A stretch of DNA of 64,000 nt from Escherichia coli (lineage in GTDB: Bacteria > Pseudomonadota > Gammaproteobacteria > Enterobacterales > Enterobacteriaceae), in the NCBI RefSeq assembly GCF_030013595.1, contig NZ_CP122768.1. The stretch is one strand, 5' to 3'. Both the position numbers and the translations under genes were made by a program. The notes under the pieces are model-generated. The model saw only the letters and a list, made by a program, of their open reading frames with translations. It did not search any database and was not told the DNA's origin. Shown piece by piece: positions 3,287 to 19,493 of this stretch; position 1 is the first letter of the stretch; every line of letters begins with the position of its first letter.

Positions 3287-5293
3287 TCACTCTTCGCCAA
3301 TTTTCAGAACTTTCAGAGCTTCCGGCTGTGCTACAACGTAGTCCAAATCTACAAAGATACGAGGCACTACCGCACCACGGTCACGGTATGTAGTTAGATC
3401 CATATCCAGTTCCAGACCGCCCCACTCACCGATGGTAATACCGGAGAAGTCACCCAGAACGATGTGGTCTGCCGGAATAACGCCAGAAGTAACTACTTCG
3501 TAACCAGCCAGTTTGCCGTTTTCGATGATATAACCGGAAACGCCGTTATCTTTCAGGGTAGATTCCAGTTCGGCAGCAGTTGCACCGCTCATTGCAAACT
3601 TGATCGCCTGAGCAGGAACGCCAGCGTCGGTCAGTGCTGCAATTTCTTTCAGGAAGTCTTTATAAGAGAAAGCAGCTTTCTTGGTAACGCGGCTAGCGTC
3701 TACCAGTTGCTTAACCAGACCAGCCGGACCACGAGCATTTTCTTTATCAGACAGAATCAGTTGTTCCAGTTTGATACGAACAGCTTTGTTAATGTGATCA
3801 GTGATCAGGGTAGCGATGCCCGGAACGGTTTTCAGCGACTGACGGCTGATCGGGTTGCCACCAGCAAAAGTTTTCGGAGACAGTTTCACGTTCGCAAATT
3901 CAGCTTTGCTTTCCGGTGCAGCACCGTTTTCATCAACGAAGCCGAAAGCGTCAACGCTGGAAGCGGTCATTTTTGGAATAGCGGTCGGGGAGTTCAAGCC
4001 ACTGTAAACAGTCACACCCAGACGACCCAGACACGAAGCAGGAAGCAGCATTTCGATGTAGGATTCAGTCATCAGTTTTTCGTCAGTGATAGCGGTCAGG
4101 TCGGCTTTGGTGTTACCAGCAGAAGCAGCACGCAGAGCAGCAGCCGGAACGAATACAGAGCCACCACGAGCAGCACGACCACGCTGCATAGTTGCAGTAG
4201 CAGCCATTGCGGAATATTCAGCTTCGTTAGCGCCGAGCACGTCGCCATCTACCAGGGAGCGGATTACGTTATTAAGATCGAAAGTTTTTTCCATGATTTG
4301 TTCCTTATTAATTTGTTCGTTATTACGTTGAGCATTGGTAATGTTATTTAGTGCCTTAGTGCGGAATGCTTCCGGCGTCATGTCTTTAATTGCCAATGCG
4401 CGTGCTAATTCAGAGTCATCAATATTTAGTTCGCGTGCAATTTCGCGAATTTCTAATTCGTCTTCTTCGGAACGTTCAGCCACTTCCTCGGTTTTTTCTT
4501 CTTCAACCGGAGCGGCTTCACGTTCTTCTTTTACTTCTTCTGTTTCCCGAACAGTTGAACTATCATCATCAACACTTTCAGGATGTTCAGCGTCTTTTCC
4601 GTCTTCGAGATTTTCATCTTCTTTATTCTCTTCAACTTGGCGCTCTTGAGTTTCTTCAACTTCCGGTTCTTTATTTTCTTCTACCGGAGTTTCTTCAACC
4701 TGAGCGGCTTCTTGTTCTTCTTTGATTTCTTCGATTTGTTCTTTAGTCATATCGCGTTTAGCCCCCAAATTAACTGTGATAGTATTTAGAGAGCGATTTA
4801 AACCGACCGTATCGTCTGCGGGCACCGACACCCATGAAATCTCGTGAGGAATCCATTTAGAAACAATGAGTTGCGATTTAGCGTAGTCGATGTGATATTC
4901 TTTAATGTCATAACCGACAGAAATTTTTTCCATCGTACCTTCAATGACTTTATTGCGAATATCATTAGCCAAAGTGCCATGCTTAGAGAATCTAACGGTC
5001 GCACGGCCTACGTTATCCGCATCGATTCGAGCGTTACAAACGACACCAATGTGATTATCGAAATTGTGATTGAACAGCAACGGAGCGTTATTATTCAGAC
5101 GAGACAGATCAACCGCTTCCGGTGTATGTACCAGAATTTCATCTAATACCACCATTTCTTGATTTTGCTCATCCCAAAATTGGCGCTGATAAGGCTGTGT
5201 ACTTGAGAAAGCAATTTCAAATTCGTATTGATCGTTATGCCCTTCATTAATAACTCCACCGTAACCGTTAAGATCGCGGCGAAATTTAAGCAT
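3287..5293 (-). CDS. Prohead protease / scaffold-like acidic linker / major capsid protein fusion (HK97-like), 668 aa
   Basis: ORF track; N-terminal ~170 aa protease-like (LLFNHNFDNHIGVV), central Glu/Lys-rich repeat segment, C-terminal ~370 aa capsid-like; SD AAAGGTGA. Confidence 0.7.
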   Translation of the reverse strand: MLKFRRDLNGYGGVINEGHNDQYEFEIAFSSTQPYQRQFWDEQNQEMVVLDEILVHTPEAVDLSRLNNNAPLLFNHNFDNHIGVVCNARIDADNVGRATVRFSKHGTLANDIRNKVIEGTMEKISVGYDIKEYHIDYAKSQLIVSKWIPHEISWVSVPADDTVGLNRSLNTITVNLGAKRDMTKEQIEEIKEEQEAAQVEETPVEENKEPEVEETQERQVEENKEDENLEDGKDAEHPESVDDDSSTVRETEEVKEEREAAPVEEEKTEEVAERSEEDELEIREIARELNIDDSELARALAIKDMTPEAFRTKALNNITNAQRNNEQINKEQIMEKTFDLNNVIRSLVDGDVLGANEAEYSAMAATATMQRGRAARGGSVFVPAAALRAASAGNTKADLTAITDEKLMTESYIEMLLPASCLGRLGVTVYSGLNSPTAIPKMTASSVDAFGFVDENGAAPESKAEFANVKLSPKTFAGGNPISRQSLKTVPGIATLITDHINKAVRIKLEQLILSDKENARGPAGLVKQLVDASRVTKKAAFSYKDFLKEIAALTDAGVPAQAIKFAMSGATAAELESTLKDNGVSGYIIENGKLAGYEVVTSGVIPADHIVLGDFSGITIGEWGGLELDMDLTTYRDRGAVVPRIFVDLDYVVAQPEALKVLKIGEE

Positions 5294-5338: not shown

Positions 5339-6850
5339 TTAGGGATCGGCTGGGGAATTTTTTTCTTCACCCTCGCCATCAACGATAATATTTAGTGCGC
5401 TCTTTTCGGCTTGAATCTCTGAGAATACTTTTTCAGGATCATCACCACGTTCAAGAATAACGGCAGTACGTGATTTAAGTCCTTTATCAATTAAAGCAAT
5501 CTCGGCGCTTACGTCTTTAAATGGATCGACGGATTCAAAACGAGGACGAATAATAGTAGTGTTGTCGATAATATGCGGAATTGCAGTAATACGAATCGGA
5601 ACAATACCACGCGCGGAATAATGGCGTAGATATGCTTCGAAAATTGGCAATACCACTGTTTCAATCAATTTGTTTTGCAGTGCTTTAACTCGTGTGCGCT
5701 GGGTTAATTCACCGAAACGTGCGGCTGAGTAGTTGATCTGGCTAGTATCACCAGTCAAGCCCTGTTTAAACACGCCTAAGCCCATTGATACGCTAGTAAA
5801 CATCGCATCATTGAAGCTGTTAAAGTCATCACCGCTTTGCGTCGCCTGGATGCTCTTGATCGTTGCCCCTTCCGGCAATTCCTGAATAGTACCCGGTGCA
5901 AAATCCTGTACTACTTCCGGCGCTTGATATTGTTCATCCTCTTCACCAGTATCAAAATCGTCACCAGAATCTTTCGGACGTTCGATAAAGCCCATAGAAC
6001 TAGCCGCAATACGTTTCTGGACGATCGCAGTTTCGCGGAATGCGTCTTGATGTGCGATATCCTTAATCACTGGCAGGAAATCAGTCACACCACGCAGGGA
6101 TTCAGACGCAAGTGGTTGATAATAATGGAATACTTGCGAAGCATCGACGCGATAGTTATCACCTGTGTAAGTCTGAGTCAGTAGGTTGATTTTACGAAAC
6201 CAATATGCAACAGGGCGCATTGTTTCTACGTCATACTCGATCCCCTGATAGATAGCACGTTCTTTGCTTATTTCACGGTTTAGCGACCAGTCGCACTTAT
6301 CAGCAGACAGGATGGAAACATTTAACTCATTGTTTTCTTTGGTTAAAACGATGAAGCACTCACCACCCATAACGCGCTCACGTTCAGCCATTACCAGCAG
6401 TTCACGGAAGTTAAAGCGACCGTTACGAGAGAAGCGTTTAGCGTTCTGCGCCCACTTCCAGAAAGCATTCTCGATCTGCTTATTCAGTGCGCTATCAAGT
6501 TTGCCATTTGATTTAACGATTGACGGCTTCGGATCTAGGCCAGTACCTACCACCATATCGGTGATGTATTGCGTGTAGCGACTGCCAACGGAAGTGTTTA
6601 AGGCCAGAGTACGACCCTGATCATAAAGGCGCTCACCGTTCGATTTGAGAGCCTTATTGAAGGTTCCTGTAATGGTGTCTTGTTGAAGTGATCCATCAAT
6701 ACGATCACCAACCAGTCCTAAACTACGAGTCGCCAGAGATTTCTGGTATCTTTCTATAGATTTGTCGATGAAAATTTTTGGTTGTTGCTGGCGGTGATTA
6801 GTTTTAACTGGAGTTTCTACCGCCTTTTTGCGTCGAAAAAGATTAAACAT
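5339..6850 (-). CDS. Portal protein, 503 aa (family not determined)
   Basis: ORF track; size and position between terminase and protease-capsid gene; acidic C-terminus; AAGGGG SD. Confidence 0.6.
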   Translation of the reverse strand: MFNLFRRKKAVETPVKTNHRQQQPKIFIDKSIERYQKSLATRSLGLVGDRIDGSLQQDTITGTFNKALKSNGERLYDQGRTLALNTSVGSRYTQYITDMVVGTGLDPKPSIVKSNGKLDSALNKQIENAFWKWAQNAKRFSRNGRFNFRELLVMAERERVMGGECFIVLTKENNELNVSILSADKCDWSLNREISKERAIYQGIEYDVETMRPVAYWFRKINLLTQTYTGDNYRVDASQVFHYYQPLASESLRGVTDFLPVIKDIAHQDAFRETAIVQKRIAASSMGFIERPKDSGDDFDTGEEDEQYQAPEVVQDFAPGTIQELPEGATIKSIQATQSGDDFNSFNDAMFTSVSMGLGVFKQGLTGDTSQINYSAARFGELTQRTRVKALQNKLIETVVLPIFEAYLRHYSARGIVPIRITAIPHIIDNTTIIRPRFESVDPFKDVSAEIALIDKGLKSRTAVILERGDDPEKVFSEIQAEKSALNIIVDGEGEEKNSPADP

Positions 6851-7427: not shown

Positions 7428-9332
7428 TTAGAACGATGTTACCCAGCTACGGCCTCTATTTGGGCGTCTGACGATGTTTTGACGTTGTGGTCGTGTGATT
7501 GGCTTAGTTTCTTCGATTTGCTCGTCAGATTGCGATTTAGGAGCTTCTACAGGTTCTTCTGGTTCACGGTTCAAACTATCTTTGATGGCTTCGAGTTTTT
7601 CCCATGACATTTTATTGAGTACATGACGAGAAGCAGCATAGGAATAAGCCAGGCAGTCCAACGCTTCGTTTCGTGTTTGTCCAACTTTTACCCAACGTGT
7701 GGTATTACCCTGCCGTTTCAACTGTTCAGAAAGCAATTGCTCGCAATAGTCATCAGGAACGTCACCAATCTGGAAGACAGTGTGAGGATCGCCATCTCTC
7801 AAGTTCCGGTTAATCATTTCACGGATCATCGTTTTAAGGTTGTTTACGCCCAGAATTTTAAGGGTAAAACCACCCGTTCTTGTGTCTTTTACCGGAAGGA
7901 TTGGTGCATCAACATTGCTTGCGCCTTTAATGGCGGTTAGATTTTGCCACCGACTACAGAATCGATAGATCACGTTTGTAGCTCGTCCGTTCGATGAGTC
8001 CACGAAAGCAGATAACATCGGGATTCGTTCACCGGATCGGGTATAGAATTTAGCTTTCAGGAAGTTGTAAAGCTGGTTATATGCTGGTGATTCGTGGCGT
8101 TCGCAGTTCACATCATAGAATGATCGGTGATCAACTACGCATAGCCCTTTACGAGAAATACCCAGCAAGGTAGATTCCAGACGGTCTTTTTGCTGGTCAA
8201 CTCCACCTACCAGAGCCAGTACATCATCAGGAATATTGTCTAGGCTAATATCAGTTTTCAGCGTTTCTAATTCGTCGGCTGTGCGGTCTTCGTTAAGATC
8301 ATCGAAGGTTTCACCGAGGACTGTATTGTAGAACGTTGCCAGGGACATATTCGCGTAGCTATCAGCAAAGTCCACCACACACGCACGGATAGAACTAAAC
8401 GGAGACATAAGGCGGTTAGCATGAAAACCGATTACTTCCGCGTTTGGTTCGGTGGCGACCCATTCTCCCTGTCCAACAGCACGTAGGCGATCACCCTCGG
8501 TCCAATCGGTTTCACATTCAGGGCAACGGTAAACGGCTGTATCTGGGTTGGGTAATGATTTACCGTTAATCGTATGCCAATCGAAATGTACGTTACTCCA
8601 TTCCATTACGTGCTTGTGTCCGCAATGCTGGCAAACGACATGATATTTTCTCTTATCCGAGAGTTCCCATTGTTGGTTAATCGCCCCATCACGAGCGGTT
8701 GGAGTGGAAGCAATTACGATCCTTGCATCTTCCCCGAAAGTGGTTGCGCGTTGTTCCGCTAGTTGGATCGGGTTCCCTTCGTCTGACTCATCAGCCGCAT
8801 CAACTTCATCAAGAATAATCAAAGGGAGTGTTTTACCGCGAAGATGTGACGGACTATTCAACGACATGAAATACATAAACGATCCGTTACGAAGCTGAAT
8901 AATCGATGAGTTGTTAACGGCATTGCGATCTGATTTGTCGGTGATCATCGCCTTTAATTCTGGTGTTGCCTCTAATACTGGCTTCACCTTACCAGCGATC
9001 CAAGAATTTAGTTCTCTAACGTTACTTTGCAACACCCCAATATTAGTAGGGTTACTCGCGATCCGATGGAAGATAATTCCGTTAAGAATCATGGTCTTAC
9101 CCAACTGTGCCGAACATTTAAACACAATTTTTCTACGGTCTTCGGTGATCGCGTCCATCATTCCACGTTGGAAGGGATGCAATTTAATTAGCGATCCGGC
9201 TTTAACACCATCGGTTGCAACTACATTAGCCTCTACCCATTCGCTAGGTTTCATCGTTTTAGGTGGGCGAATTGCCGCAGAGATATTTTTAAGAATCTTT
9301 TTTAATTTTGCCTTGTTCGAAATCAGTTTCAT
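7428..9332 (-). CDS. Terminase large subunit, lambda GpA family, 634 aa
   Basis: ORF track; recalled lambda gpA similarity: ..HPFQRGMMDAI.. near N-terminus, Walker-A-like KCSAQLGKT, C-terminal RNEALDCLAYSYAA matching gpA RNEALDCFVYALAA. Confidence 0.85.
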   Translation of the reverse strand: MKLISNKAKLKKILKNISAAIRPPKTMKPSEWVEANVVATDGVKAGSLIKLHPFQRGMMDAITEDRRKIVFKCSAQLGKTMILNGIIFHRIASNPTNIGVLQSNVRELNSWIAGKVKPVLEATPELKAMITDKSDRNAVNNSSIIQLRNGSFMYFMSLNSPSHLRGKTLPLIILDEVDAADESDEGNPIQLAEQRATTFGEDARIVIASTPTARDGAINQQWELSDKRKYHVVCQHCGHKHVMEWSNVHFDWHTINGKSLPNPDTAVYRCPECETDWTEGDRLRAVGQGEWVATEPNAEVIGFHANRLMSPFSSIRACVVDFADSYANMSLATFYNTVLGETFDDLNEDRTADELETLKTDISLDNIPDDVLALVGGVDQQKDRLESTLLGISRKGLCVVDHRSFYDVNCERHESPAYNQLYNFLKAKFYTRSGERIPMLSAFVDSSNGRATNVIYRFCSRWQNLTAIKGASNVDAPILPVKDTRTGGFTLKILGVNNLKTMIREMINRNLRDGDPHTVFQIGDVPDDYCEQLLSEQLKRQGNTTRWVKVGQTRNEALDCLAYSYAASRHVLNKMSWEKLEAIKDSLNREPEEPVEAPKSQSDEQIEETKPITRPQRQNIVRRPNRGRSWVTSF

Positions 9333-9423
9333 GTAATTACCCTCATTACGAAATATGAAGGTATTTATTAAATTGTTGATATTTTGATAAATATGGGTAT
9401 TAAGGCAGAGTTCTTTATGTCGG

Positions 9424-9453
9424 TTGACGATGGAGAACTTTTTCCGATAAAAT
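9424..9453 (+). promoter_or_regulatory. Candidate sigma70 promoter for the 77-aa gene
   Basis: TTGACG, ~17 bp spacer, ATAAAA/TAAAAT about 45 bp upstream of the start codon. Confidence 0.4.
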
Positions 9454-9498
9454 GTAAGTCCTCTAAATAAAGGTGAACATTCACTTTAATTTGGAGAA

Positions 9499-9732
9499 AT
9501 GACTATGACTACTAAAGCTACTCGCGGTCGCCCTGCCCGTTATACTCGTGAACAGATGGCTGATATTGCCTACGCTTACTATACAGCGGATCGCGGGAAG
9601 GAAGCGAAAGAACAGATTCTTAGTGAACATGGGATTTCAGTAGCCCAATTCTATAAGAATATGAAGAAGTTAGACATTAAATTCTATGTTCAGATCGATG
9701 ACGGTCAGATCGTAGAAGCAACAGGTTTTTGA
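9499..9732 (+). CDS. Small putative DNA-binding protein, 77 aa (paralog of 13446..13628)
   Basis: ORF track; N-terminal RGRPARYTRE motif shared with the second small protein (ARPVKFTRE); own promoter and terminator. Confidence 0.45.
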   Translation: MTMTTKATRGRPARYTREQMADIAYAYYTADRGKEAKEQILSEHGISVAQFYKNMKKLDIKFYVQIDDGQIVEATGF

Positions 9733-9740
9733 TTCTCTTT

Positions 9741-9764
9741 GCCACTCTTCGGAGTGGCTTTTTT
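9741..9764 (+). terminator. Rho-independent terminator of the 77-aa gene
   Basis: GCCACTCTTCGGAGTGGC followed by TTTTTT. Confidence 0.6.
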
Positions 9765-9792
9765 GTATCTAAGTTATTGATTTTCTCGAACT

Positions 9793-9835
9793 TCACAATT
9801 TGTGGGAGTCGGGAAACATCCACAATTTGTGGGAG
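9793..9835. repeat. Two direct copies of CACAATTTGTGGGAGT (27-bp period), each with an 11-bp palindromic core CACAA-T-TTGTG
   Basis: Read directly; lies between two convergent terminators. Confidence 0.6.
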
Positions 9836-9844
9836 TTGGATAGT

Positions 9845-9872
9845 AAAAAGCCCCACCATTACGGCAGGGCTT
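9845..9872 (-). terminator. Rho-independent terminator of the 183-aa gene
   Basis: Minus-sense AGCCCTGCCGTAATGGTGGGGCT followed by TTTTT. Confidence 0.55.
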
Positions 9873-9876
9873 CTAA

Positions 9877-10428
9877 TCAGATTCCGAAGATGTCACATAG
9901 GTCGGCTGTGTGGCGTTCTTGTTTTGAATAGTAAATCCGTTCAGCTTCATATAACGTGATAGAATCATCATTAACGACGGTTTCAAACTCCCCTTCTATT
10001 ACCCTTTCTGTGTGCGCTTTACTGCGTAATTCGGCCTCTTCCATGCGATATAAGCCAATACAGATACTACCATATACACCATATTTTTTCTCGTCGAGAT
10101 GGCGACGACCTTTGCGTTGTTCGAACGGAAGATCGTAAGCGGTTATCTTTTTGCGGCGAACTCGATCATATCCACTCTCTTTGGCATCAATCATCATACT
10201 AATCAACATCCCACATTTAACAAGGGATTCAAGGCACTGACGAATAGAATTAGTTCTTGATTGTTTTAATTCTGGGTTAGGATCGTAATATGGATTATCT
10301 ATCCATGATTCATGAATAAGGAAATGTACGTCATCAGCCGTTAAAGGCCAACCACCAACACTTTCAACATCGGTCTTAGTACAATCAAACAGATCCAGAA
10401 TGAATTTCTTTTTGTGCGTCATTTTCAT
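9877..10428 (-). CDS. Hypothetical protein, 183 aa
   Basis: ORF track; last gene of a four-gene minus-strand operon; no family recognised. Confidence 0.45.
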   Translation of the reverse strand: MKMTHKKKFILDLFDCTKTDVESVGGWPLTADDVHFLIHESWIDNPYYDPNPELKQSRTNSIRQCLESLVKCGMLISMMIDAKESGYDRVRRKKITAYDLPFEQRKGRRHLDEKKYGVYGSICIGLYRMEEAELRSKAHTERVIEGEFETVVNDDSITLYEAERIYYSKQERHTADLCDIFGI

Positions 10429-10523
10429 AATGTTCTATCCTCAAAATACTTAAAAAGTACCATGCCGATTTTCGCGGCATGGTCAAAAAATCACCATACA
10501 CCCAATGGGCGTTTGGTTAAAAA

Positions 10524-11363
10524 TTAGATACCAAAGACAGCAAGTGATCCGGCGTTCTTACGAATCAATGCGGCGGTATTATTAACGATTGCACGAGCAT
10601 TGTTAGGCTGCGGTAATTTCAAAGTTGCTATCGTCTCTTCCTCAATCAAGCCCAATTCAACCAGCACTGGTAAACAGTCAGTTGTGAACTCAAGCTGACC
10701 ATGTGCTGATTGTCGGGCATACATGTAAGCAGGAGGAAGAACATCATAGCCACAAGGCTTACCAGAAGCATCCAGACGGCGCTCAATGTGTTTAGCCTCA
10801 CACAATCCCTTAAGAATACGTTGTACCTTCGTAGAGCCTCGTTTTTCGCCCAATAAGCGGGTTAAGCTGTGCCCGTCAATGGCACGGCGAACATGAAGAT
10901 CAATTAATTGTTCTTTTTCTTCCGCTAAAGTCAGAGCCTTACGAATCCAATCAACTTCGGTCATCTTGCTTGCGTCTGGGAAAGCGTTATTCTTTAATTC
11001 TTCATTTTCTTTCTTCAAACGCTGCCATTCATCAACCAGCATTGCGGTATAAACCGGATCGGTCTGTGCGATAACAATGTAGCTATCACGTTCAGTCAGA
11101 AGATAAACTTCAATTGGTTTGCCTTTACGGCCTAAACGGTCAGTTTTTGACCAAAACGCCACTGGCGGTTTGGTTACAATTTGAGCTTCAACCAGACGAT
11201 CAACCGTTCTCATAATATCGGTGTGACGGTTTTCACGCCCCATTAGTTCAGCAATACGCCAGGTAGAAATTGATAATTCTTTCTCTACAGAGTCATTTGC
11301 AGCAGTCAGGTCAACAGAAGAAGCAGTTTTAACAGCAGTATTCATAGTAGTAACAGTATTCAT
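10524..11363 (-). CDS. Rha-family phage regulatory protein (antirepressor-like), 279 aa
   Basis: ORF track; N-terminal ..STWRIAELMGRENRHTDIMRTVDRL.. resembles the Rha-domain pattern (recalled); C-terminal domain unrecognised. Confidence 0.5.
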   Translation of the reverse strand: MNTVTTMNTAVKTASSVDLTAANDSVEKELSISTWRIAELMGRENRHTDIMRTVDRLVEAQIVTKPPVAFWSKTDRLGRKGKPIEVYLLTERDSYIVIAQTDPVYTAMLVDEWQRLKKENEELKNNAFPDASKMTEVDWIRKALTLAEEKEQLIDLHVRRAIDGHSLTRLLGEKRGSTKVQRILKGLCEAKHIERRLDASGKPCGYDVLPPAYMYARQSAHGQLEFTTDCLPVLVELGLIEEETIATLKLPQPNNARAIVNNTAALIRKNAGSLAVFGI

Positions 11364-11451
11364 AGTAGTAATTCCCCTTTCGGTTTAGTGATATTGATCC
11401 TCCTAGTTCCGGCATCACCACCGGAACATTTTTATTTATGATAGAAATTTA

Positions 11452-11784
11452 TTACCAATCGATTTCTACTTGGTCTTCTTCATAATAAGGAATCGCATAT
11501 TCATAACGCCAATTTTCGATGATTTCACGTTCTTCATTAGTAAGAAGGTGATTGTTAACTGGAGTCGCATTGTGATTACCAGCTTCGAATTGCTCGCGAA
11601 CTTCCAGCATTGCATGAATACCAGTTAAGGACATCAGATCAAACGGAACATGCATACTACGGGAGATTGTTTCACGGGATACGCCCCAATCATTTTCTAC
11701 ATGGCTAGGGGTTACAGAAACGGTTTTGCCGGAGATTTTAACAGTCCAGTCATACAGGGATTTAGTGATGGTAAATTCTTTCAT
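11452..11784 (-). CDS. Hypothetical protein, 110 aa
   Basis: ORF track; directly downstream of a consensus promoter. Confidence 0.4.
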   Translation of the reverse strand: MKEFTITKSLYDWTVKISGKTVSVTPSHVENDWGVSRETISRSMHVPFDLMSLTGIHAMLEVREQFEAGNHNATPVNNHLLTNEEREIIENWRYEYAIPYYEEDQVEIDW

Positions 11785-11825
11785 GTTACATCCTCTTTAC
11801 AAATCTAGGTCAAATAGGTTCAAAG

Positions 11826-11883
11826 TTGTCAAGTGCGATAATCATAAAAAAGTTTGAAGATATTGTCAAATACCACTTGACAA
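11826..11883 (-). promoter_or_regulatory. Consensus sigma70 promoter (TTGACA-17-TATGAT, minus strand) bracketed by a 10-bp inverted repeat TTGTCAAGTG / CACTTGACAA
   Basis: -35 at plus 11864-11869, -10 at plus 11841-11846; inverted-repeat arms at 11826-11835 and 11874-11883. Confidence 0.5.
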
Positions 11884-11905
11884 GACACCAAAGGGTTGAC
11901 CTAAC

Positions 11906-12094
11906 TTACAGCATATCTAAGCCTTCATCGTAACCGTAGAAGCCATTCTGAGAAGAGAAGCAGATTGGTGCGTAGTCGTCGTCATCTTCGTCTTGTTCAT
12001 CTTGTTCTGGGGCTTCCTGAGCGGTTTCTTTGCCGTAGTTAAACATGGCTTCATCCAGTTCATAGTGGAAATCCTCTAAAAGAAAGTGAATCAA
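11906..12094 (-). CDS. Small strongly acidic protein (62 aa from TTG; 46 aa from internal ATG); frame uncertain
   Basis: ORF track (TTG start); acidic run EAPEQDEQDEDDDDY; an alternative overlapping frame has the better SD. Confidence 0.25.
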   Translation of the reverse strand: MIHFLLEDFHYELDEAMFNYGKETAQEAPEQDEQDEDDDDYAPICFSSQNGFYGYDEGLDML

Positions 12095-12700
12095 TCTAAT
12101 ATTATTTATAAAGAGAAAATTCTTGTTATTATGAAAGGAGTGATCTGGTAGAGTCCAAAACTGGTCTGTACTTGAAAGGTGATTGGATTCAGTCGGGCAA
12201 AGCCCTCCTTCATGTTTTGATTAAATCATCATCAAAACGAAGAAGTATCTTTAGAATATAAGATCTTTCTTTTGGAGAAATAATAATCAGGAAGCAATTT
12301 GGCAACCGAAGGTTGCAATCCCGAAGGGATAACCAATACCTTTCTAGAAAGTGATTGTTACTCACTTCGTTCGTTTACTAGAATCAGTTATCATCTGGTA
12401 TTAAATCCCTTTCTAAGAAAATCCTTTCAAAAGTGATTCTCGATGCCACGCAGTGGCGTCGCAGACGTTTGGGAGTGAGCGAAGCGAGCGAGCAAACTAG
12501 TTAATTCCTTCTAAGACCATCTAGTATCATCTAGTTTAAATTAGTTGTTACTAGAAGCAATTGGTTGGCGCTTCGCGCAGTCGGGCTAAAGCCCTCCTAA
12601 TTATCTTTTTGGTTATTTGTTGTTTTTAGTTTTACACATGAGCGTAGCGAATGTGTTATATAATATCTATGCACGCCCAATCCCCCGCTTTTTCCCCTCA
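12095..12700. other. ~600 bp hairpin-dense non-coding region (candidate structured RNA or DNA-level origin/packaging signals)
   Basis: No ORF; many short-loop hairpins (GCAACC-GAA-GGTTGC, ATCCC-GAA-GGGAT, GCCAC-GCA-GTGGC, GCGC-TTC-GCGC); CTAG-rich; ~20-bp direct repeats CAGTCGGGC(T)AAAGCCCTCCT at ~12190-12209 and ~12578-12598. Confidence 0.5.
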
Positions 12701-12743
12701 CTAAGTTAATGTTTTATAAAGAGTTTTTCTCACCAATCCTTTT

Positions 12744-12931
12744 CGGGGGCAAATTTCAGGGGCAAAAATTAGATTTTCAGGGGCAAAAATAGTGGGTTTC
12801 AGGGGCAAAAATGAGGGGCAAAATCACTGTTTCCCAGAATTTCAGGGGCAAAAATAGTGGGTTTCAGGGGCAAAAATGGGATGTGGAATCTAGGGGATTT
12901 TGGTTCAGGGGCAAAATTCAGGGGCAATTTT
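12744..12931 (+). repeat. Iteron array: 9 copies of (TTCA)GGGGCAAAAAT, including an exact 38-bp duplication
   Basis: Read directly; copies at ~12746, 12759, 12780, 12802, 12815, 12845, 12867, 12908, 12921; 38-mer TTCAGGGGCAAAAATAGTGGGTTTCAGGGGCAAAAATG at 12777 and 12841. Confidence 0.85.
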
Positions 12932-12968
12932 CATAGTGTAGGGCTAGTGTAGGTTTGAAAATCCTTTG

Positions 12969-13025
12969 TTGACACTGTGTAGGATCGGTGGTATACTTGA
13001 AAATTCGAGATAAATATGTTATAAT
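12969..13025 (+). promoter_or_regulatory. Tandem near-consensus sigma70 promoters next to the iterons
   Basis: P1 TTGACA (12969-12974), 17 bp, TATACT (12992-12997); P2 TTGAAA (12997-13002), 17 bp, TGtTATAAT (13017-13025). Confidence 0.55.
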
Positions 13026-13171
13026 ATTTGTATTGAAAGTGAAAATTTACCGATTTTCCTTCCTATTGTTATCACCGTGTTAAATTGTTATATGTCTGTG
13101 AAGATTTGGATCTGAGAGAAAATCTTGTAACAAATCTTTACAATTCATAGCTCAATTAATGCTCACCGCTT

Positions 13172-13310
13172 TAGCAAAAAGTGCTATGCCTTTTTCTAAA
13201 TTGATTGAATATACATCAATTTGGTTAAATCGTGTTCTTCGCTTTAGCAATTCGTGCTGTGGTTTAACACATTTAACACGTCTGATAACATCTGAATAAC
13301 ATTTTAACAT
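13172..13310 (+). promoter_or_regulatory. Operator-like palindromes and phased TAACAY repeats upstream of the 60-aa gene
   Basis: TAGCAaaaagTGCTA (13172-13186) and TAGCAattcgTGCTg (13245-13259); five TAACAC/TAACAT copies at ~10-11 bp spacing in 13264-13310. Confidence 0.45.
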
Positions 13311-13445
13311 ATCTCTGTTATAAATACATATATAAGAGATAAATGTGAGGGGTTGAAAAATAAAATACAATCCCATATAAATAATAGTGAGCGGTTAACG
13401 CTCTTTTTTAAGAAATCATTAATCCACATTGTAGGAGGATTCGAG

Positions 13446-13628
13446 ATGGCACGACCTGTTAAGTTCACTCGCGAAATCATCTTAGAAATGGCTAAACGCT
13501 ACTTTGAGTTAACGCCGGGTGTGAGAATTGAAGAGTGGTTTAAAAATGAGGGCATCGATAAATCAACCTTTCATAAACTGCTAAAACGATATGACATTAA
13601 AGTGAAGATTGAAGCTACCGTTTGGTAA
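13446..13628 (+). CDS. Small putative DNA-binding protein, 60 aa (paralog of 9499..9732)
   Basis: ATG with AGGAGGA SD inside tracked ORF 13353..13628 (which begins at TTG); MARPVKFTRE motif. Confidence 0.5.
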   Translation: MARPVKFTREIILEMAKRYFELTPGVRIEEWFKNEGIDKSTFHKLLKRYDIKVKIEATVW

Positions 13629-13742
13629 TCAACTTTGACTGAGAATTATATGATGGCTTTAAAAAAGAAAAAGCCTCCTTTGCTGCAACAAGGGAGGCTT
13701 GAAATGAACAATTAAAACTAACTTTCCATAGGAGTATTTATA

Positions 13743-14684
13743 ATGTTATTTTCCGCTAACTTTTTCACTAACGAAGTAACCAACGCTAAAGCAGTTATCA
13801 AATTTGGCACCGAAGCAAACAAGAAGATTCAGCCGAAAGTTGTTGCTCATGTTTCCTTTGCGCAGCAGAAATCCGCTTTCGCTGGCTTTAAAGCACATCG
13901 TGAAGCACTGATCGCGGCTGGCTTTGGTGTTGACGGTAAACTGCCTAACGGCATTCGTAAAGCAATCGACCGCGTTAAACCAGTTAAAGACGTTGCAGTA
14001 GACCACATCGTTACTTTTACCGTTAAGAACTCTTCTGAACTGTTCCACCTGGTTATTGCTGGTGATACTGCTATCGTTTCCGCTCCTAACATGGATTTTC
14101 AGGATACCGCTGATTGCCAGATCACCTTCGGTCGTCGTAAAGAAGTTACCGGAAAAGCTAAACTGAACTTCACTAAATCCGGCAATCCTTACTTTGCTGT
14201 ATTCTTTAACAGCCACGCTACCGAAAAAGAAGTTGTAGAACTGGTTGCTTATGAAGGTGAAGAGAAAGAACGTATTGAATCTTGCGAAGCATTTCTGGAA
14301 CTGGAAGCACAGGTGAATGCTGTTTCTCCGGTTGTTGAAGATCGCTTTGCTGCACTGGAAGCACAGATCGCAGAACTGAAAGCTGCACTGGAAGAAAAAG
14401 ACCAGATTATCGAAGCACAGAAAGCTGAGATTGAAGAACTGAAAGCTAAAGAAGTTGCTCCGGTGGCAGTAGTTGAAAACGCGGCTGATGAGGCCGCAAA
14501 TGATGAAGTAGAAGTGAAAATCGATGTGATGCGTGATCCGATGGCTGCACTGCAATTACTTCGTTCTTTTAAGGGCAAATCTCATTTTTCTAGTGATGTA
14601 GAAGATGAGGAAGAAGAACAGAAACGCAATGCTGCAATGCTTCATGATGAAATGTACGGTACTAACTTTTCTTACTGCCAATAA
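13743..14684 (+). CDS. Hypothetical protein, 313 aa: unrecognised N-terminal domain, coiled-coil, acidic C-terminal tail
   Basis: ORF track; AGGAG SD; heptad-like ALEAQIAELKAALEEKDQIIEAQKAEIEELKAKE; no NTPase or nuclease motif seen. Confidence 0.5.
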   Translation: MLFSANFFTNEVTNAKAVIKFGTEANKKIQPKVVAHVSFAQQKSAFAGFKAHREALIAAGFGVDGKLPNGIRKAIDRVKPVKDVAVDHIVTFTVKNSSELFHLVIAGDTAIVSAPNMDFQDTADCQITFGRRKEVTGKAKLNFTKSGNPYFAVFFNSHATEKEVVELVAYEGEEKERIESCEAFLELEAQVNAVSPVVEDRFAALEAQIAELKAALEEKDQIIEAQKAEIEELKAKEVAPVAVVENAADEAANDEVEVKIDVMRDPMAALQLLRSFKGKSHFSSDVEDEEEEQKRNAAMLHDEMYGTNFSYCQ

Positions 14685-14707
14685 AAAAAGGGACTCCGAA
14701 GAGTCCC
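14684..14707. terminator. Terminator hairpin (A-run/hairpin; works for minus-sense transcripts, possibly bidirectional)
   Basis: AAAAAA then GGGACTCCGAAGAGTCCC immediately after the 313-aa stop. Confidence 0.5.
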
Positions 14708-14780
14708 TAGTAAGTTTAGGTTAGGTTTGCACAACAAAGATGAGGTTATAATGAATATAATGCTACATTATTCTTTAAAG

Positions 14781-14811
14781 CCAGAAAAATAACCGCCCCC
14801 TTCGGGGCGGG
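14781..14811 (-). terminator. Second minus-sense terminator hairpin
   Basis: CCGCCCCCTTCGGGGCGG with T-rich tract on the minus sense; ~100 bp from the previous hairpin. Confidence 0.4.
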
Positions 14812-14968
14812 AGGATTAATACTCAATCTATACTTGTTATGTTTTTATGTTGTATAGTCACTGACTATGAAAACACTGTACTGAATGTGTTTTATGGCTT
14901 TTAATCGGGAACTCTCTTTCGAAAATTCCCTGTTAAAACCACATAAGGAGAAAAGGCAGATTACAATA

Positions 14969-15253
14969 TTATTTAGTCTGTTTGAAAACGAACGTTAAAA
15001 ATTCGATTAAGCAATATACCCAAAGTACGGTCAGCATCAAATGCATAGCAATAGTTGGATGGAAGTTAAAAAGTGTCATACTAACTAGGCCAACAATATA
15101 AGAAATTCCTTCGACAATTAACGCAAGGCTAGCAAATGCAACAAACGCACCTAAGAATAATTCGCCTCGTTCTTTCGGTTCGGTTCCGAGTTTATAAGCA
15201 GAGATAGCAGCCAGAATAGTAATGATGACAGCATAGGTAATAAAAGTAGCCAT
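14969..15253 (-). CDS. Small membrane protein, 94 aa (three predicted TM helices)
   Basis: ORF track; AAGAGGA SD; hydrophobic segments separated by charged loops. Confidence 0.5.
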   Translation of the reverse strand: MATFITYAVIITILAAISAYKLGTEPKERGELFLGAFVAFASLALIVEGISYIVGLVSMTLFNFHPTIAMHLMLTVLWVYCLIEFLTFVFKQTK

Positions 15254-15269
15254 AGTTTTATATCCTCTT

Positions 15270-15298
15270 AAAAGTTAAGCGGGGGATGTTCTCCCCCG
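15270..15298 (-). terminator. Terminator after the terS-like gene
   Basis: Hairpin CGGGGGATGTTCTCCCCCG with T-rich minus-sense tail. Confidence 0.45.
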
Positions 15299-15345
15299 TA
15301 GACGTTGACCATCAACATCTTTCATACATTTATTTATAACGCGTT

Positions 15346-15903
15346 TTAAGACACATCAAATTCATCGTCTTCTTCTGGTTCTTGTTCTTCCGGTTCATCC
15401 ATTAATGGTAATTCTTCTTCCTCGTCTTCTCCCAAATCTGCATTTTCGAACAAGTCCCCTACTTCATTTAAACGACGCTCGATGATCTCCCTTAGCTTAT
15501 TCTTTAATGTTTTCTGGTCATTGGCAGATTCGAGAATTTCTAGGGCATCGATCGTACAAATCTGCAAAATAGTCTGCTTCACTTTCCCGCAATATTCCGC
15601 TAGTTGCTGTTCTACATAACCGACAGGAATCAGGAGGTTCATTTTTTCCTGATTCTCTCGTTCGGCTGCATCTGCCATTGCTCTTTCTCTGCGGAGACGT
15701 TCTTGATCAATCGCTTCTTTGATTGAAGTTTGTTTAAGTGGGTTAATTACGTTCTTTAGCACCCAATCGCAACCTTCCTTTGCCGGAACACGCCTCTTAT
15801 TGGTATTGTAAGGTAGTCCCCTTTCTAACCATCGCTTACCGCCACCATTCAATGTATAGCCATATAAACGGGAAATTTCTGTAAGGGTTAATTCTTCTTT
15901 CAT
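15346..15903 (-). CDS. Nu1-like small terminase subunit candidate (winged-HTH protein with acidic C-terminus), 185 aa
   Basis: ORF track; strong GGAGGA SD; GGGK and W.ERGLP motifs loosely like lambda Nu1 (recalled); first gene inside the element boundary. Confidence 0.4.
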   Translation of the reverse strand: MKEELTLTEISRLYGYTLNGGGKRWLERGLPYNTNKRRVPAKEGCDWVLKNVINPLKQTSIKEAIDQERLRRERAMADAAERENQEKMNLLIPVGYVEQQLAEYCGKVKQTILQICTIDALEILESANDQKTLKNKLREIIERRLNEVGDLFENADLGEDEEEELPLMDEPEEQEPEEDDEFDVS

Positions 15904-16350
15904 TGGTTATCCTCCATTAAATTTGCGTAATTTTATTTATTGGTTTTACGCAAAATCTAAGCGCCTAAATCGCATTCTAACGAAGGGAAAGATCCAGTAA
16001 TGGTAAGGGCTAGGAAGTGGGTTAATAGTCGCGTAGCGACCGCGCTAGGACTGCACTGATCACGTTTTAAAATCTCACACGCACATCAAAAACCGGGGTG
16101 CCGAAAACTCGCTTTATCTGACCCCGATCCAGAACCTAAATCATTTGTCAAGTCTTTCCGATTCAGTAAAGGGGAACATGCATCTAAGCTAGAGAAGCTC
16201 ATAAAGACTAAGTATGAATGCGGTGTTGTTAGTCGGGATGATATGCGAGACGGTTACACTGAAACGCTACCATTTGAAGCATTGCCGGAGATCATCACTA
16301 TCACCAACAAAATGATAAGCGAAAGCATCCTCGTAAGTAATTGATTCCTA

Positions 16351-16380
16351 AGCCCTGTCCTTGTGATGGGGCTTTTTTAT
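16351..16380 (+). terminator. Hairpin plus T-run at the element edge (third member of the AGCCCTG...GGGGCTTTTT family)
   Basis: AGCCCTGTCCTTGTGATGGGGCT followed by TTTTTT. Confidence 0.45.
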
Positions 16381-16394
16381 TGGAAAAATTTTAG

Positions 16395-16724
16395 TTATTG
16401 GGGTTTACAACATTTAGGTTTGCCAATTCGTCTGGCTAACTCTTGCTGAGTGATTTCTGACTGTAAAAAAGCATTTAACAGCAATACCTTAGAGGCGACA
16501 CTCAAAGGCACTTCAATAAAGTGATCGTGACTATTTAATGGCGAAGGTAACGGGATAAGCTCGTTATCTTCAAAATAAAAATCAAATGCGGTCAGTAAAG
16601 CATCTTTTGCCGCTTCCATCGCTTCAGCAACTGTTTCGCCCTGGGTCAACGCTTCAGGGATATCCACAAAAGAAACCATATAACCGCCTTCCGGCGCGGG
16701 TGTAAGAGTGACGGGATAACGCAT
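16395..16724 (-). CDS. hicB: HicB antitoxin, C-terminally truncated at the element junction
   Basis: Matches recalled K-12 HicB from MRYPVTLTPAPEGGYMV.. through ..ARRIGKPK, then 5 non-native codons (CCKPQ) and a stop; C-terminal DNA-binding domain missing. Confidence 0.7.
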   Translation of the reverse strand: MRYPVTLTPAPEGGYMVSFVDIPEALTQGETVAEAMEAAKDALLTAFDFYFEDNELIPLPSPLNSHDHFIEVPLSVASKVLLLNAFLQSEITQQELARRIGKPKCCKPQ

Positions 16725-16769
16725 AATTTCGACTGTCTCTCGCATGTCATTAACCTTTTTAATTGGCGA

Positions 16770-16946
16770 TTAACTCAAACCGAGTTGCTTCAGGATTGCT
16801 TTACGCAATGGTTCTTTAATCTCATCGCAGGGGTGACGCGGCATGACACTGCGCCTCCCGTGAAACCTGAGTTTTAAATGGTTGCTGCCATTCGCTACAT
16901 CGACGCCCTGAGATTCGAGCCAACGTCTGAACTCGCTTTGTTTCAC
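16770..16946 (-). CDS. hicA: HicA mRNA-interferase toxin, 58 aa, GTG start
   Basis: Hand translation VKQSEFRRWLESQGVDVANGSNHLKLRFHGRRSVMPRHPCDEIKEPLRKAILKQLGLS; below the ORF-track size cut-off. Confidence 0.7.
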   Translation of the reverse strand: MKQSEFRRWLESQGVDVANGSNHLKLRFHGRRSVMPRHPCDEIKEPLRKAILKQLGLS

Positions 16947-17167
16947 ATCGCCTCCCTGCCGCTGAGTATATCAACAAAGTAAACATTAGTGTTTACCTCC
17001 GTGTGTAATTTGCTCGAAAATAGCACTAAATCGCCGCAACGGCAGAATGCAATGCAAAATCAGGAAGGAAGATTCCAGAATTTCTTTGCGCTAATTTGCA
17101 AAACTGAATAATAACCTCAAGAAACTATCGGCATCATAGCGGCAAAAGGTGAGAAAAAGGTGGCGGG

Positions 17168-17398
17168 ATGTTTACGAAGGCGTTATCGGTTGTCTTATTA
17201 ACGTGTGCGCTGTTCTCAGGACAACTCATGGCAGGGCACAAAGGACATGAATTTATGTGGGTAAAGAATGTGGATCATCAGCTACGTCATGAAGCGGACA
17301 GCGATGAATTGCGTGCCGTGGCGGAAGAGTCGGCGGAAGGTTTGCGCGAGCATTTTTACTGGCAAAAATCGCGCAAACCAGAAGCGGGACAACGTTGA
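17168..17398 (+). CDS. yncJ: Small secreted protein YncJ, 76 aa
   Basis: ORF track; signal peptide; K-12 position between hicA and ydcP. Confidence 0.6.
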   Translation: MFTKALSVVLLTCALFSGQLMAGHKGHEFMWVKNVDHQLRHEADSDELRAVAEESAEGLREHFYWQKSRKPEAGQR

Positions 17399-17404
17399 GT
17401 CATT

Positions 17405-17489: not shown

Positions 17490-19493
17490 TTACCCTTTTC
17501 GCTTCGGCAATGTTTTCAGCAGCTCATCCGGACTTACGGAGGCGACAACACTTCCCGGTAACGGCATTTTCAGAATGTGATTTTTAATTTTGCCGATGAC
17601 GTGCATCTCGCATGGGCGGCAATCAAACTTTAGCGTTAATACTTCATCGCCGTTAACCAGTTGCATTGGCGTCGCCTTCCAGCTTTTGATATTGCCTTTC
17701 GCCTGTTTCGGGCACAGATTGAAGGCAAAGCGCAGACAATGCTTAGTGATCATCACCGGGACTTCGCCCTTCTCTTCATGTGCCTCATACGCCGCGTCAA
17801 TCAGCTGCACACCGTAGCGATGATAAAATTCACGCGCTTTCTGGTTGTATACGTTCGCGAGGAAACTCAGATGCGTTTGCGGATAAACCGGCGCAGGATC
17901 AGCAACCGGTTTACGGCTGCCCCGCTGGTAACCGGCAAGACGTGCAGCATCCAGCATGTCGGCGGCTTCACGGCGGAACTGGTTTAACAGACTGTTTGGT
18001 ACAAACAGCGCACCCGGCAAATTAATTTGCACATCGCGGGCGTAATAGATGGTTTGCCCCAGTTTTGCCAGACCATCCTTTAGATTGTTCATTGCTTTTT
18101 CGGCGTTATTGGCTTCGTCGAACTGCCCGTCCAGCGTATGCATGATGCTGACACCCTCTTCACTGGTGAGGGTCAGAATCAGTTGTTCCTGCCAGCCGCC
18201 CAGTTCAATGTCTACCGCCACCCGACGTTCGCTGGATGTTTTGGTCAGTGCCTGCTGCCAGTTATGATCAAGATTACGGTTTAGTGGGTGATGCGGGCGA
18301 ATTTTGTGCAACTCTGCTGGCATTTCATTGGGCCAGACGCGGTACTGATTTTCTCCGGTTTTCTCGACCGTATTGGCACGAAAGCCGACGACTTCACGTT
18401 TAATCATCACGTTCAGGCCATCGCCATTTGCCAGTGGTTCGGAAACGGCAACATCGAGATGATCTTTCGCCACTTTCAATACTTCACCCACCGGCAGGCC
18501 GATAAATTTCGGCGAATCGAACGCGCCAATATCGCCTTTACGGGCATTCACAAAATAATCTGTGCTACCACGGTGGAAAGTCTTTTCCGTCGATGGAACA
18601 AAGAAATGTTCAGTACGACCTGATGAAGCACGCGTCAGATCGACACGTTCTTCAATAATGGCATCCAGCATCTGGCGATAATGGGCGGTGATATTCTTCA
18701 CGTAGCTCATATCTTTGTAACGCCCTTCAATCTTGAAGGAGCGTACGCCAGCATCAATCAGCGCGCCGAGGTTGGCAGTCTGATCGTTATCTTTCATCGA
18801 CAGCAGATGTTTTTCATAGGAAACCACCCGCCCCTGATCGTCTTTCAATGTGTATGGCAAACGGCACGCCTGCGAGCAATCGCCACGGTTGGCGCTACGC
18901 CCTGTTTGCGCATGAGAAATGTAGCACTGACCCGAATAGGCCACGCACAGTGCGCCATGAATAAAGAATTCAATGGTCGCGTCCGTGGCCTGGTGAATCG
19001 CGCGGATCTGCTCAAGATTCAGTTCTCGCGCCAGCACAATCTGCGTGAAGCCAACATCAGAGAGGAACTTCGCTTTTTCTACTGTACGAATGTCGCACTG
19101 CGTACTGGCGTGCAGTTCAATCGGCGGAATATCAAGTTCCAGAATCCCCATATCCTGAACAATCAGCGCATCGACGCCGGTCTGGTAGAGGTCAGTAATC
19201 AGCCGTTGCGCGGGTTCCAGCTCATCATCATGCAAAATTGTGTTAAGCGTGACGAAAATTTTTGCACCATAACGATGGGCAAACGGCACCAGCTCGGCAA
19301 TATCTTTCAGGCTATTACTGGCATTATGACGGGCACCAAAACCAGGGCCGCCGATATAAACAGCATCGGCACCGTGCAAAATAGCTTCGCGGGCAATGGC
19401 GGCATCGCGTGCCGGACTTAACAGTTCAAGACGATGAGAAGATACAGTCACTTTCTTATCCAGTAGCTGAAAAATGGCGGCTATTTTAGCCAC
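17490..19493 (-). CDS. ydcP: U32-family peptidase-like protein
   Basis: ORF track (667 aa); U32-type motifs; K-12 synteny. Confidence 0.7.
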   Translation of the reverse strand: MAKIAAIFQLLDKKVTVSSHRLELLSPARDAAIAREAILHGADAVYIGGPGFGARHNASNSLKDIAELVPFAHRYGAKIFVTLNTILHDDELEPAQRLITDLYQTGVDALIVQDMGILELDIPPIELHASTQCDIRTVEKAKFLSDVGFTQIVLARELNLEQIRAIHQATDATIEFFIHGALCVAYSGQCYISHAQTGRSANRGDCSQACRLPYTLKDDQGRVVSYEKHLLSMKDNDQTANLGALIDAGVRSFKIEGRYKDMSYVKNITAHYRQMLDAIIEERVDLTRASSGRTEHFFVPSTEKTFHRGSTDYFVNARKGDIGAFDSPKFIGLPVGEVLKVAKDHLDVAVSEPLANGDGLNVMIKREVVGFRANTVEKTGENQYRVWPNEMPAELHKIRPHHPLNRNLDHNWQQALTKTSSERRVAVDIELGGWQEQLILTLTSEEGVSIMHTLDGQFDEANNAEKAMNNLKDGLAKLGQTIYYARDVQINLPGALFVPNSLLNQFRREAADMLDAARLAGYQRGSRKPVADPAPVYPQTHLSFLANVYNQKAREFYHRYGVQLIDAAYEAHEEKGEVPVMITKHCLRFAFNLCPKQAKGNIKSWKATPMQLVNGDEVLTLKFDCRPCEMHVIGKIKNHILKMPLPGSVVASVSPDELLKTLPKRKG

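Follow-up and report, generated by a model that had tools for sequence, protein, structure and literature searches.

Candidate marboxes and a lineage-specific TAACA array in the control region of an Escherichia coli prophage

The prophage and its long non-coding gap

The window, i.e., the whole 64,000-nucleotide stretch of Escherichia coli DNA that was analysed, begins inside a siphovirus-like prophage of ~35 kb, the right part of which extends from position 1 to ~16200. In other E. coli strains, the prophage sits in ycdX, where it is integrated by a large serine recombinase. Here, its right boundary (16157-17400) adjoins hicAB and a U32-peptidase gene (17490-19493); since many relatives reside in ycdX, the prophage family uses more than one integration site. 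The structural genes display only a distant kinship to known phages, and the DNA between 12400 and 13700 has zero matches in known phage and plasmid collections. Among 5426 complete E. coli genomes, the ~1.3 kb surrounding the elements described below are found in 51. A Nu1-like small-terminase candidate (15346-15903, minus strand; PHROG 57, E = 2.7e-11) occupies the rightmost part of the prophage, beside the attachment site. It lies ~6 kb from a gpA-type large terminase (7428-9332, minus strand), with the entire regulatory and iteron region in between.

A non-coding gap of 1.05 kb (12366-13445), with a GC content of 0.30, separates leftward genes (Rha/Ant-like and others) from a rightward operon. 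Immediately left of the gap (11906-12365), relatives encode a protein of ~150 residues with an acidic C-terminal tail, the window version of which is truncated or replaced, homology being limited to the C-terminal 62 residues. From left to right, the gap harbors GC-rich mini-hairpins, iterons, two sigma70 promoters, the candidate marboxes and the TAACA array that are the subject of this report, and a hairpin followed by a T6 run. The mini-hairpins (12440-12660) comprise GCGAAGC, GCGTAGC, GCCCC-GNAG-GGGC, and GGGCTAAAGCCC, and are also present in the equivalent regions of the related loci L019, L021, and L022. GCGAAGC is a very stable single-stranded DNA mini-hairpin, and the cluster suggests a single-strand priming or origin function. 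The iterons, about ten copies of TTCAGGGGCAAAAAT, occupy positions 12742-12927; those of the Edwardsiella relatives differ (TTCAAATGCTAC / TTCGGATGCTA). Despite the iterons, the ~35-kb prophage has no recognisable gene for a replication initiator, helicase, primase, or polymerase. Two tandem near-consensus sigma70 promoters follow (12969-13025, plus strand; TTGACA-17-TATACT and TTGAAA-17-TATAAT), from which rightward transcription across the whole region is predicted. At the other end of the gap, a conserved GC hairpin (GAGCGGTTAACGCTC) and its T6 run (13389-13409, plus strand) are found directly before the ribosome-binding site of the first gene, and could serve as a terminator for upstream transcripts or as a 5' stabiliser. 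A conserved DnaA-box-like sequence (TTAATCCACA, 13419-13428) comes after them.

The rightward operon opens with a gene coding for a helix-turn-helix (HTH) protein of 60 residues (13446-13628, plus strand), the synteny of which is kept in Salmonella and Edwardsiella, followed by a gene coding for a 313-residue protein (13743-14684, plus strand). A second HTH gene, coding for 77 residues, is located 3.7 kb upstream of the marbox and array region. The 313-residue protein is present on at least 1000 contigs. A homologue search returned only near-identical hypothetical proteins, its AlphaFold model has a pLDDT of 60, and this model finds no fold match in the PDB at E<=0.001. Searches of the neighbouring genes against Pfam, PHROGs, and NCBIfam yield weak HTH, Rha/Ant, and small-terminase-like matches only, without any AraC-family, Cox/Xis, or Rep protein among them. 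An earlier note on this DNA had placed regulatory sites beside the iterons, in the leader of the 60-residue gene. The location is correct, and the sites are very probably protein-binding elements of the prophage control region.

The two TAGCA-N5-TGCTA elements

Two 15-bp palindromes of the form TAGCA-N5-TGCTA had been described in this leader. The first (TAGCAAAAAGTGCTA, 13172-13186) is indeed perfect, the second (TAGCAATTCGTGCTG, 13245-13259) carries one mismatch, and their spacing of 73 bp holds from start to start and corresponds to about seven helical turns. With up to one mismatch, two such palindromes are found in the 64-kb window for 1.57 expected, so the palindrome as such is not the significant unit. 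That unit is an asymmetric direct repeat, GCTTTAGCAA-N3-GTGCT, starting at 13168 and 13241. The conserved part, CTCTTTAGCAATTCGTGCTCC, is asymmetric and occurs throughout in a single orientation, it matches a site bound by a monomer, the marbox, and its presence does not correlate with the 60-residue, the 77-residue, or any other neighbouring protein. The view of the palindromes as dyad-symmetric repressor operators is abandoned on these grounds. Another palindrome, AAATTGAT-N9-ATCAATTT (13198-13222), lies between the two elements; it is unrelated to the LexA box, which the Salmonella locus L031 possesses at that position.

Marboxes are asymmetric 20-bp sites bound by a monomer of the AraC-family stress activators MarA, SoxS, or Rob (RamA in Salmonella). 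On the minus strand, the two elements read ATAGCACTTTTTGCTAAAG (13169-13187) and ACAGCACGAATTGCTAAAG (13242-13260), and are termed marbox 1 and marbox 2 hereafter according to their proposed identity. Both differ from the 19-mer consensus AYNGCACNNWNNRYYAAAY at one position. In both copies, the mismatch to AYnGCACnnWnnRYYAAAY falls on the final Y, and position 19 is a G in every copy, which counts against the marbox reading; at one mismatch, this consensus has only three sites in 64 kb for 1.2 expected. The bottom-strand core of marbox 2 (GCACGAATTGCTAAA) agrees with the MarA ChIP-seq consensus gcactaattgctaaa at 14 of 15 positions, and that of marbox 1 (GCACTTTTTGCTAAA) at 13 of 15. Matches to this 15-bp consensus have been scored as "conserved" from 14/15 upwards and as "conserved with mismatches" at 13/15 (PMC5684230). 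The values of both copies equal those of the best E. coli MarA targets confirmed in vitro, yneO, yeeF, and ypeC. Furthermore, the top strand reads TTT-N7-CGTG, as in the class I acrA site, and a partial dyad GCA-N5-TGC is built into the marbox consensus, which explains the palindromic look. The two "palindromes" are therefore best described as probable near-consensus marboxes of the high-affinity type for the host MarA, SoxS, or Rob proteins, with a probability of roughly 0.6. This proposal builds on sequence identity, orientation, conservation pattern, and modularity; the binding protein, the start site, and the sign of regulation are inferred.

A search with the 60-residue protein (58-93% identity) led to syntenic loci in Edwardsiella, E. 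coli, and Salmonella, the leaders of which are mosaics that cannot be aligned over most of their length. Nevertheless, 15 of 20 leaders from E. coli and Salmonella contain the exact 17-mer CTTTAGCAATTCGTGCT amid unalignable flanks and invariably on one strand, variation within it being confined to the three central bases (TTC or AAA). Marbox 1 is conserved without exception among the 17 unique window-type sequences, and L031 has it as well; the exact 17-mer of marbox 2 is also found in Salmonella relatives with unalignable flanks and in T1-like phages. A degenerate host marbox would not require 17 bases to be kept unchanged in unrelated phages, and this strictness could reflect a more specific binder than MarA, SoxS, or Rob. 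A scan of IMG/VR for the 17-mer retrieves the prophage family and T1-like phages (one to three per contig). In GTDB genomes, it gives 46 matches, scattered over unrelated taxa, for ~35 expected (2 x 298 Gb / 4^17, our own estimate). A literature search for the motif sequence itself gave no match.

A 2024 paper on phage TLS describes "21-nt intergenic repeats" (aaATAGCACnnnTTGnTAAAA) with AAA, TTT, and GAA subgroups, which are oriented along transcription and located ~76 nt ahead of start codons; in its accessible text, their function is listed as an open question and marboxes are not mentioned (PMC11447400). The window copies comply with the repeat consensus, marbox 1 as ATAGCAC-TTT-TTGCTAAAG ("TTT" subtype) and marbox 2 as ACAGCAC-GAA-TTGCTAAAG ("GAA" subtype), but not with its orientation and distance, both being antisense to the downstream gene and 186-277 nt from the ATG. 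Phage AHS24 (L167, NC_024784) contains 11 copies at up to two mismatches where 0.13 are expected, among them those at 5762, 15108, 22310, 25142, 30154, 33019, 35942, 41170, 43671, and 44514; every copy has the same orientation as the gene that follows it. In 30 of 39 unique T1-like contexts (from L052-L119), exactly 18 bp separate the 20-mer from a downstream TATAGT, TATTAT, or TATATT hexamer, a -35 element being absent; a Shine-Dalgarno sequence and the ATG come after the -10. This arrangement gives a forward site centred near -41, where class II marboxes lie, and the promoters of that class characteristically have no -35. It is proposed from this geometry that the T1-like 21-nt repeats may be class II marbox promoters lacking a -35 element.

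No AraC-family protein was detected in a scan of all the ORFs of the prophage regulatory region and of six AHS24 genes. Three other assignments of the motif were rejected: as a sigma54 promoter, its GG-GC spacing is 2 bp short; as a T3/T7-type promoter, it would call for a phage RNA polymerase, a gene for which is neither annotated in AHS24 nor, according to the TLS paper, present (PMC11447400); and as boxA/nut, its orientation is wrong.

The TAACA array and the promoter elements of the leader

Five TAACA(Y) repeats (13265-13310, plus strand), i.e., TGTTA direct repeats on the bottom strand, form an array that includes an 11-bp pair (13286/13297). The TAACAY hexamers reported in the earlier note are all there, at 13265, 13274, 13286, 13297, and 13305 on the plus strand. 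Their spacing of about one helical turn is an approximation: it amounts to 9, 12, 11, and 8 bp (mean 10.0), with copies 1, 3, and 4 in phase and copies 2 and 5 off by ~0.15-0.2 turn. The idea of a cooperative array or wrapped site stands in part, as the hexamers look like a phased multi-protomer site, while the palindromes form a separate module. Over the whole window, TAACAY shows no enrichment (60 copies for 62.6 expected); five TAACA on the same strand within 46 bp were reached in none of 2000 shuffles of 16 kb of local, AT-rich composition, the maximum being four, in eight shuffles. An inverted TGTTA cluster (13067, 13078, and 13086; 13067-13090, plus strand), which also includes an 11-bp pair, lies ~200 bp upstream and is complementary to the array. 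These copies, as well as those at 13017 and 13316, had been missed before. The cores of the upstream cluster are kept in the E. coli relatives and partly degenerate in L031.

The array cores are invariant, and the spacers variable, in 17 sequences and in L031, which retains all five TAACA cores and their spacing between different spacers. In IMG/VR, the exact array geometry occurs in this prophage lineage only, and the pattern has 0 matches in GTDB representative genomes. The part of the prophage that the window contains, from which the left end is missing, showed no second array. Among the relatives, the array is restricted to window-type E. coli prophages and L031. Most relatives have a marbox without the array, and L031 has the array with only one marbox; the two features occur apart and are therefore separate modules. 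When the identity of each neighbouring protein was compared with the presence of array or marbox, no protein tracked either feature. The TAACA array is a genuine predicted binding module, separate, lineage-specific, and clearly selected. Locus L019 of Edwardsiella tarda (3640-3930) has neither marbox nor array; it displays instead palindromes of the GTTTAG-N5-CTAAAC type and CTAAAC(A/G) direct repeats around its own TATAAATAC element, and three extra ORFs, one of which encodes a 71-residue paralogue of the 77-residue HTH protein of the window.

The TGTTA core brings to mind ArcA. ArcA-P sites are composed of two to five direct repeats with a centre-to-centre spacing of 11 bp, the most conserved core of which is TGTTA; at putP, a direct repeat spaced by 12 bp is not bound. 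In the window, TGTTA-N6-TGTTA is found three times for 0.11 expected, two of these pairs being in this leader on opposite strands (13067-13082, plus; 13286-13301, minus). They have the 11-bp spacing of ArcA pairs, but additional repeats at 11 or 22 bp are missing, the other spacings being 8, 9, and 12 bp. Since only one of the four array spacings is 11 bp, a 12-bp repeat is not bound at putP, and all five cores are conserved, ArcA alone is insufficient, and it is a lead rather than an assignment: ArcA-P as the binder of the array is doubtful. A small phage protein of the Cox/Apl type is a possible binder as well, direct repeats about one turn apart being typical of filaments of the Cox/Apl/Xis type.

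Downstream of the array, a conserved -10-like element (TATAAATAC, 13319-13327, plus strand) with a TG at -15/-14 would constitute the promoter served by the marboxes. This motif recurs at a fixed distance from the marbox in relatives, and its first bases are mutated in two of them (TCTAAATAC or TGTAAATAC). In 17 unique leaders with a single marbox, this site is reversed and has its centre at -70 relative to the start deduced from a conserved TATAAAT element. The window marboxes are likewise in reverse orientation, with centres at ~-80 and ~-153 relative to the putative start near 13331, and the array spans -66 to -21. Class I marboxes are as a norm reversed at -62/-72, the published ranges being -56 to -85 and, elsewhere, 53-73 bp. 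Marbox 2 (~-80) is inside the former range and outside the latter, one helical turn beyond the -70 of the relatives; marbox 1 (-153) is outside both. A class I marbox mechanism at the rightward promoter is conceivable, at somewhat less than even odds.

Other host-type elements are found in this leader and in those of the relatives. The window carries the remnant of a sigma32-type promoter (13353-13379, plus strand; TTGAAA-N13-CCCATATA) with one C missing (CCCATAT); its start would fall near 13386. The exact consensus, TTGAAA-N13-CCCCATAT, occurs just upstream of the 60-residue gene in 44 related loci, at the equivalent position in L001-L018, L019, L032, and others. One or two LexA boxes (CTGT-N8-ACAG) flank the marbox in L022, L025, L028, L029, and L032-L038. 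They are located at -221 and -118 from the ATG of the 60-residue gene, and at -291 in L031 (TACTGTATGAATATACAGTA). In the 17 single-marbox leaders, one LexA box lies between the marbox and the TATAAAT element and a second one upstream; the window leader has none. A sigma54-type promoter, TGGCACGG(C/T)(T/A/G)TTTGC (TGGCAC-N5-TTGC), is present in the leaders of L022, L028, L029, L031, and L036-L038, from ~-336 to -472 relative to the ATG, with invariant GG/GC elements and a variable spacer, and is absent from the window. With LexA, sigma32, and sigma54-type elements in the leaders of the relatives, the use of host signals is the rule at this place.

Alternative readings, proposed regulation, and known systems

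The earlier note had regarded the palindromes and the TAACAY repeats as a cooperative repressor array or a wrapped nucleoprotein site. In this model, the palindromes would be dyad operators for a phage repressor, the HTH protein of 60 or 77 residues, and the TAACAY repeats a wrapped site for that protein or a partner, comparable to those of P2 Cox or 186 Apl. The perfect symmetry of copy 1 is in line with this model, as are the proximity of both small HTH genes, one directly downstream and the other 3.7 kb upstream, the repeats at about one turn known in general from Cox/Apl/Xis filaments, and the lineage specificity of the array, which is that of phage specificity elements. However, the conserved bases are not symmetric about the dyad and keep one orientation, and the outer T/A pair is missing from copy 2 and from most relatives. 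L033 and L036, with 60-residue proteins 83-85% identical to that of the window, have no array; L019 (77% identity) has neither feature, and L022 (58%) keeps the marbox. Together with the lack of a second array in the prophage sequence within the window, this makes the repressor model unlikely, and for the two palindromes host-type marboxes probably take the place of phage-repressor operators. A phage-encoded protein common to T1-like phages and the prophage might also recognise the 20-mer, the only candidate being the Rha-family DNA-binding protein. Identity over 17-20 bp across unrelated phages exceeds the needs of a host marbox, BLASTP of the prophage against AHS24 retrieves two shared families only (tail-tip proteins and Rha-domain proteins, the latter 25-37% identical), and the Rha gene lies in the regulatory region of both genomes. 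Yet L019, L023, L024, and L026 encode Rha and are devoid of the motif, while the Rha proteins of motif-bearing relatives are 38-64% identical to that of the window and the motif is invariant. As the motif also matches the experimentally defined consensus of a host factor at 14 of 15 positions, and stands at exactly both the positions and orientations used by the MarA/SoxS/Rob family, recognition by such a phage-encoded protein is unlikely. It is very improbable that the 20-mer is read by an activator made by T1-like phages, in which 10-21 copies would make it the main promoter element, instead of by host factors. Were this the case, the reversed prophage copies would be a superinfection sensor, and an incoming phage would switch on, or be titrated by, the prophage control region, as an escape or defence trigger.

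At the RNA level, the TGTTA cluster (13067-13090) could pair with TAACA copies 1-3 (13265-13290) in transcripts from the 12969 and 12997 promoters. The long helix would then act in processing or attenuation, upstream of the terminator-like hairpin, and the palindromes would be a nut-like boxA and hairpin. A 381-nt segment of the plus strand folds at -95.7 kcal/mol (z = -5.9, versus -3.7 for the opposite strand) with an interrupted 23-bp helix between the two clusters, the hairpin and T-run ahead of the 60-residue gene are conserved, and CTCTTTAGCAA resembles the rrn boxA, GCTCTTTAACAA. Against this, the RNAalifold covariation term is +1.08, the long helix shows not one compensatory change, and the variable positions of the linkers are not compensated either. 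In L031, three helix pairs are lost through the degenerate upstream copies, while the downstream TAACA cores are intact; the conservation therefore looks like repeated recognition by a protein and not like base pairing. An Rfam scan of 9000-17000 at E<=1 gave no match, and the fixed orientation and boxB covariation of lambda-type nut sites are lacking. Moreover, in T1-like phages the 20-mer has the opposite orientation relative to transcription and lies upstream of the -10, which is incompatible with a common RNA-level role. An RNA element is hence quite improbable. The marboxes might finally be class II promoters firing leftward toward the iterons, as in T1-like phages. The bottom-strand sites have the forward orientation, and TATGAA occurs 18 bp beyond copy 1; this hexamer is devoid of the conserved final T, however, and neither copy 2 nor the L021, L022-type, and L031 sites have an acceptable -10 (TAnnnT) at a downstream distance of 17-19 bp. 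Leftward class II use is unsupported for want of this -10, and its probability is very low.

Under the marbox reading, the two sites have the class I orientation, reverse to rightward transcription, and oxidative, antibiotic, or bile stress signals would raise through them the transcription of the 60-residue/313-residue operon from the downstream TATAAATAC element, where the start is presumed to lie. As a best guess, ArcA-P or a small phage protein would occupy the core promoter via the TAACA array, and at -66 to -21 would occlude RNA polymerase. This protein may also loop to the upstream inverted cluster and oppose the marbox-bound activator. Taken as a whole, the leader resembles a modular device that gathers host stress inputs and passes them to the rightward operon. 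An abundant, unstudied prophage family of E. coli and Salmonella would, if the sites are marboxes, wire its switch region to regulators of antibiotic, superoxide, and bile responses, and drug and oxidative stress would be linked to prophage gene expression by a non-SOS route. The question printed in 2024 on the T1-like 21-nt repeats would be answered too, in a manner that is cheap to test, and Drexlerviridae would run much of their transcription through host Rob, MarA, and SoxS.

Compared with chromosomal marboxes, the window sites show the same asymmetry, strict orientation, and consensus match, but are located in a prophage control region and not at a chromosomal stress gene, occur in two copies, and are far more invariant. 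They share with the T1-like phages TLS, T1, Rtp, and Rogue1 the same sequence, TTT and GAA subtypes included, the exact 20-mer ATAGCACGAATTGCTAAAG being common to the prophage and Rogunavirus genomes. In these phages, each genome has 10-21 copies, which point the same way as the next gene and precede its start codon by ~70-76 nt and a -10 by 18 bp. The prophage, in contrast, carries a single copy or two, which face against the downstream gene at a distance of 120-280 nt from the start codon. The array has in common with ArcA-P sites the TGTTA core, A/T-rich 3' flanks, and one TGTTA-N6-TGTTA pair per cluster; it counts five repeats in 46 bp, with two clusters on opposite strands as at dctA, and differs by its spacings of 8, 9, and 12 bp instead of 11 or 22, at which the copies are yet equally conserved. 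In the P2 Cox, 186 Apl, and lambda Xis systems, small winged-helix proteins polymerise on phased direct repeats, usually with a second array at the attachment site. Like these systems, the array consists of lineage-specific direct repeats about one helical turn apart in a switch region, with small DNA-binding genes nearby. Unlike them, it is associated with no detected protein of this kind, its presence is independent of the small HTH proteins, and the surroundings of the attachment site yielded no further array, the left prophage end lying beyond the window. Finally, 186 tum and the Gifsy antirepressors are expressed from LexA-controlled promoters. The window leader differs from them in having another palindrome where a LexA box could be expected, whereas its relatives likewise carry consensus LexA boxes, adjacent to the marbox, which suggests that host stress regulators, beyond a phage repressor, gate the operon.
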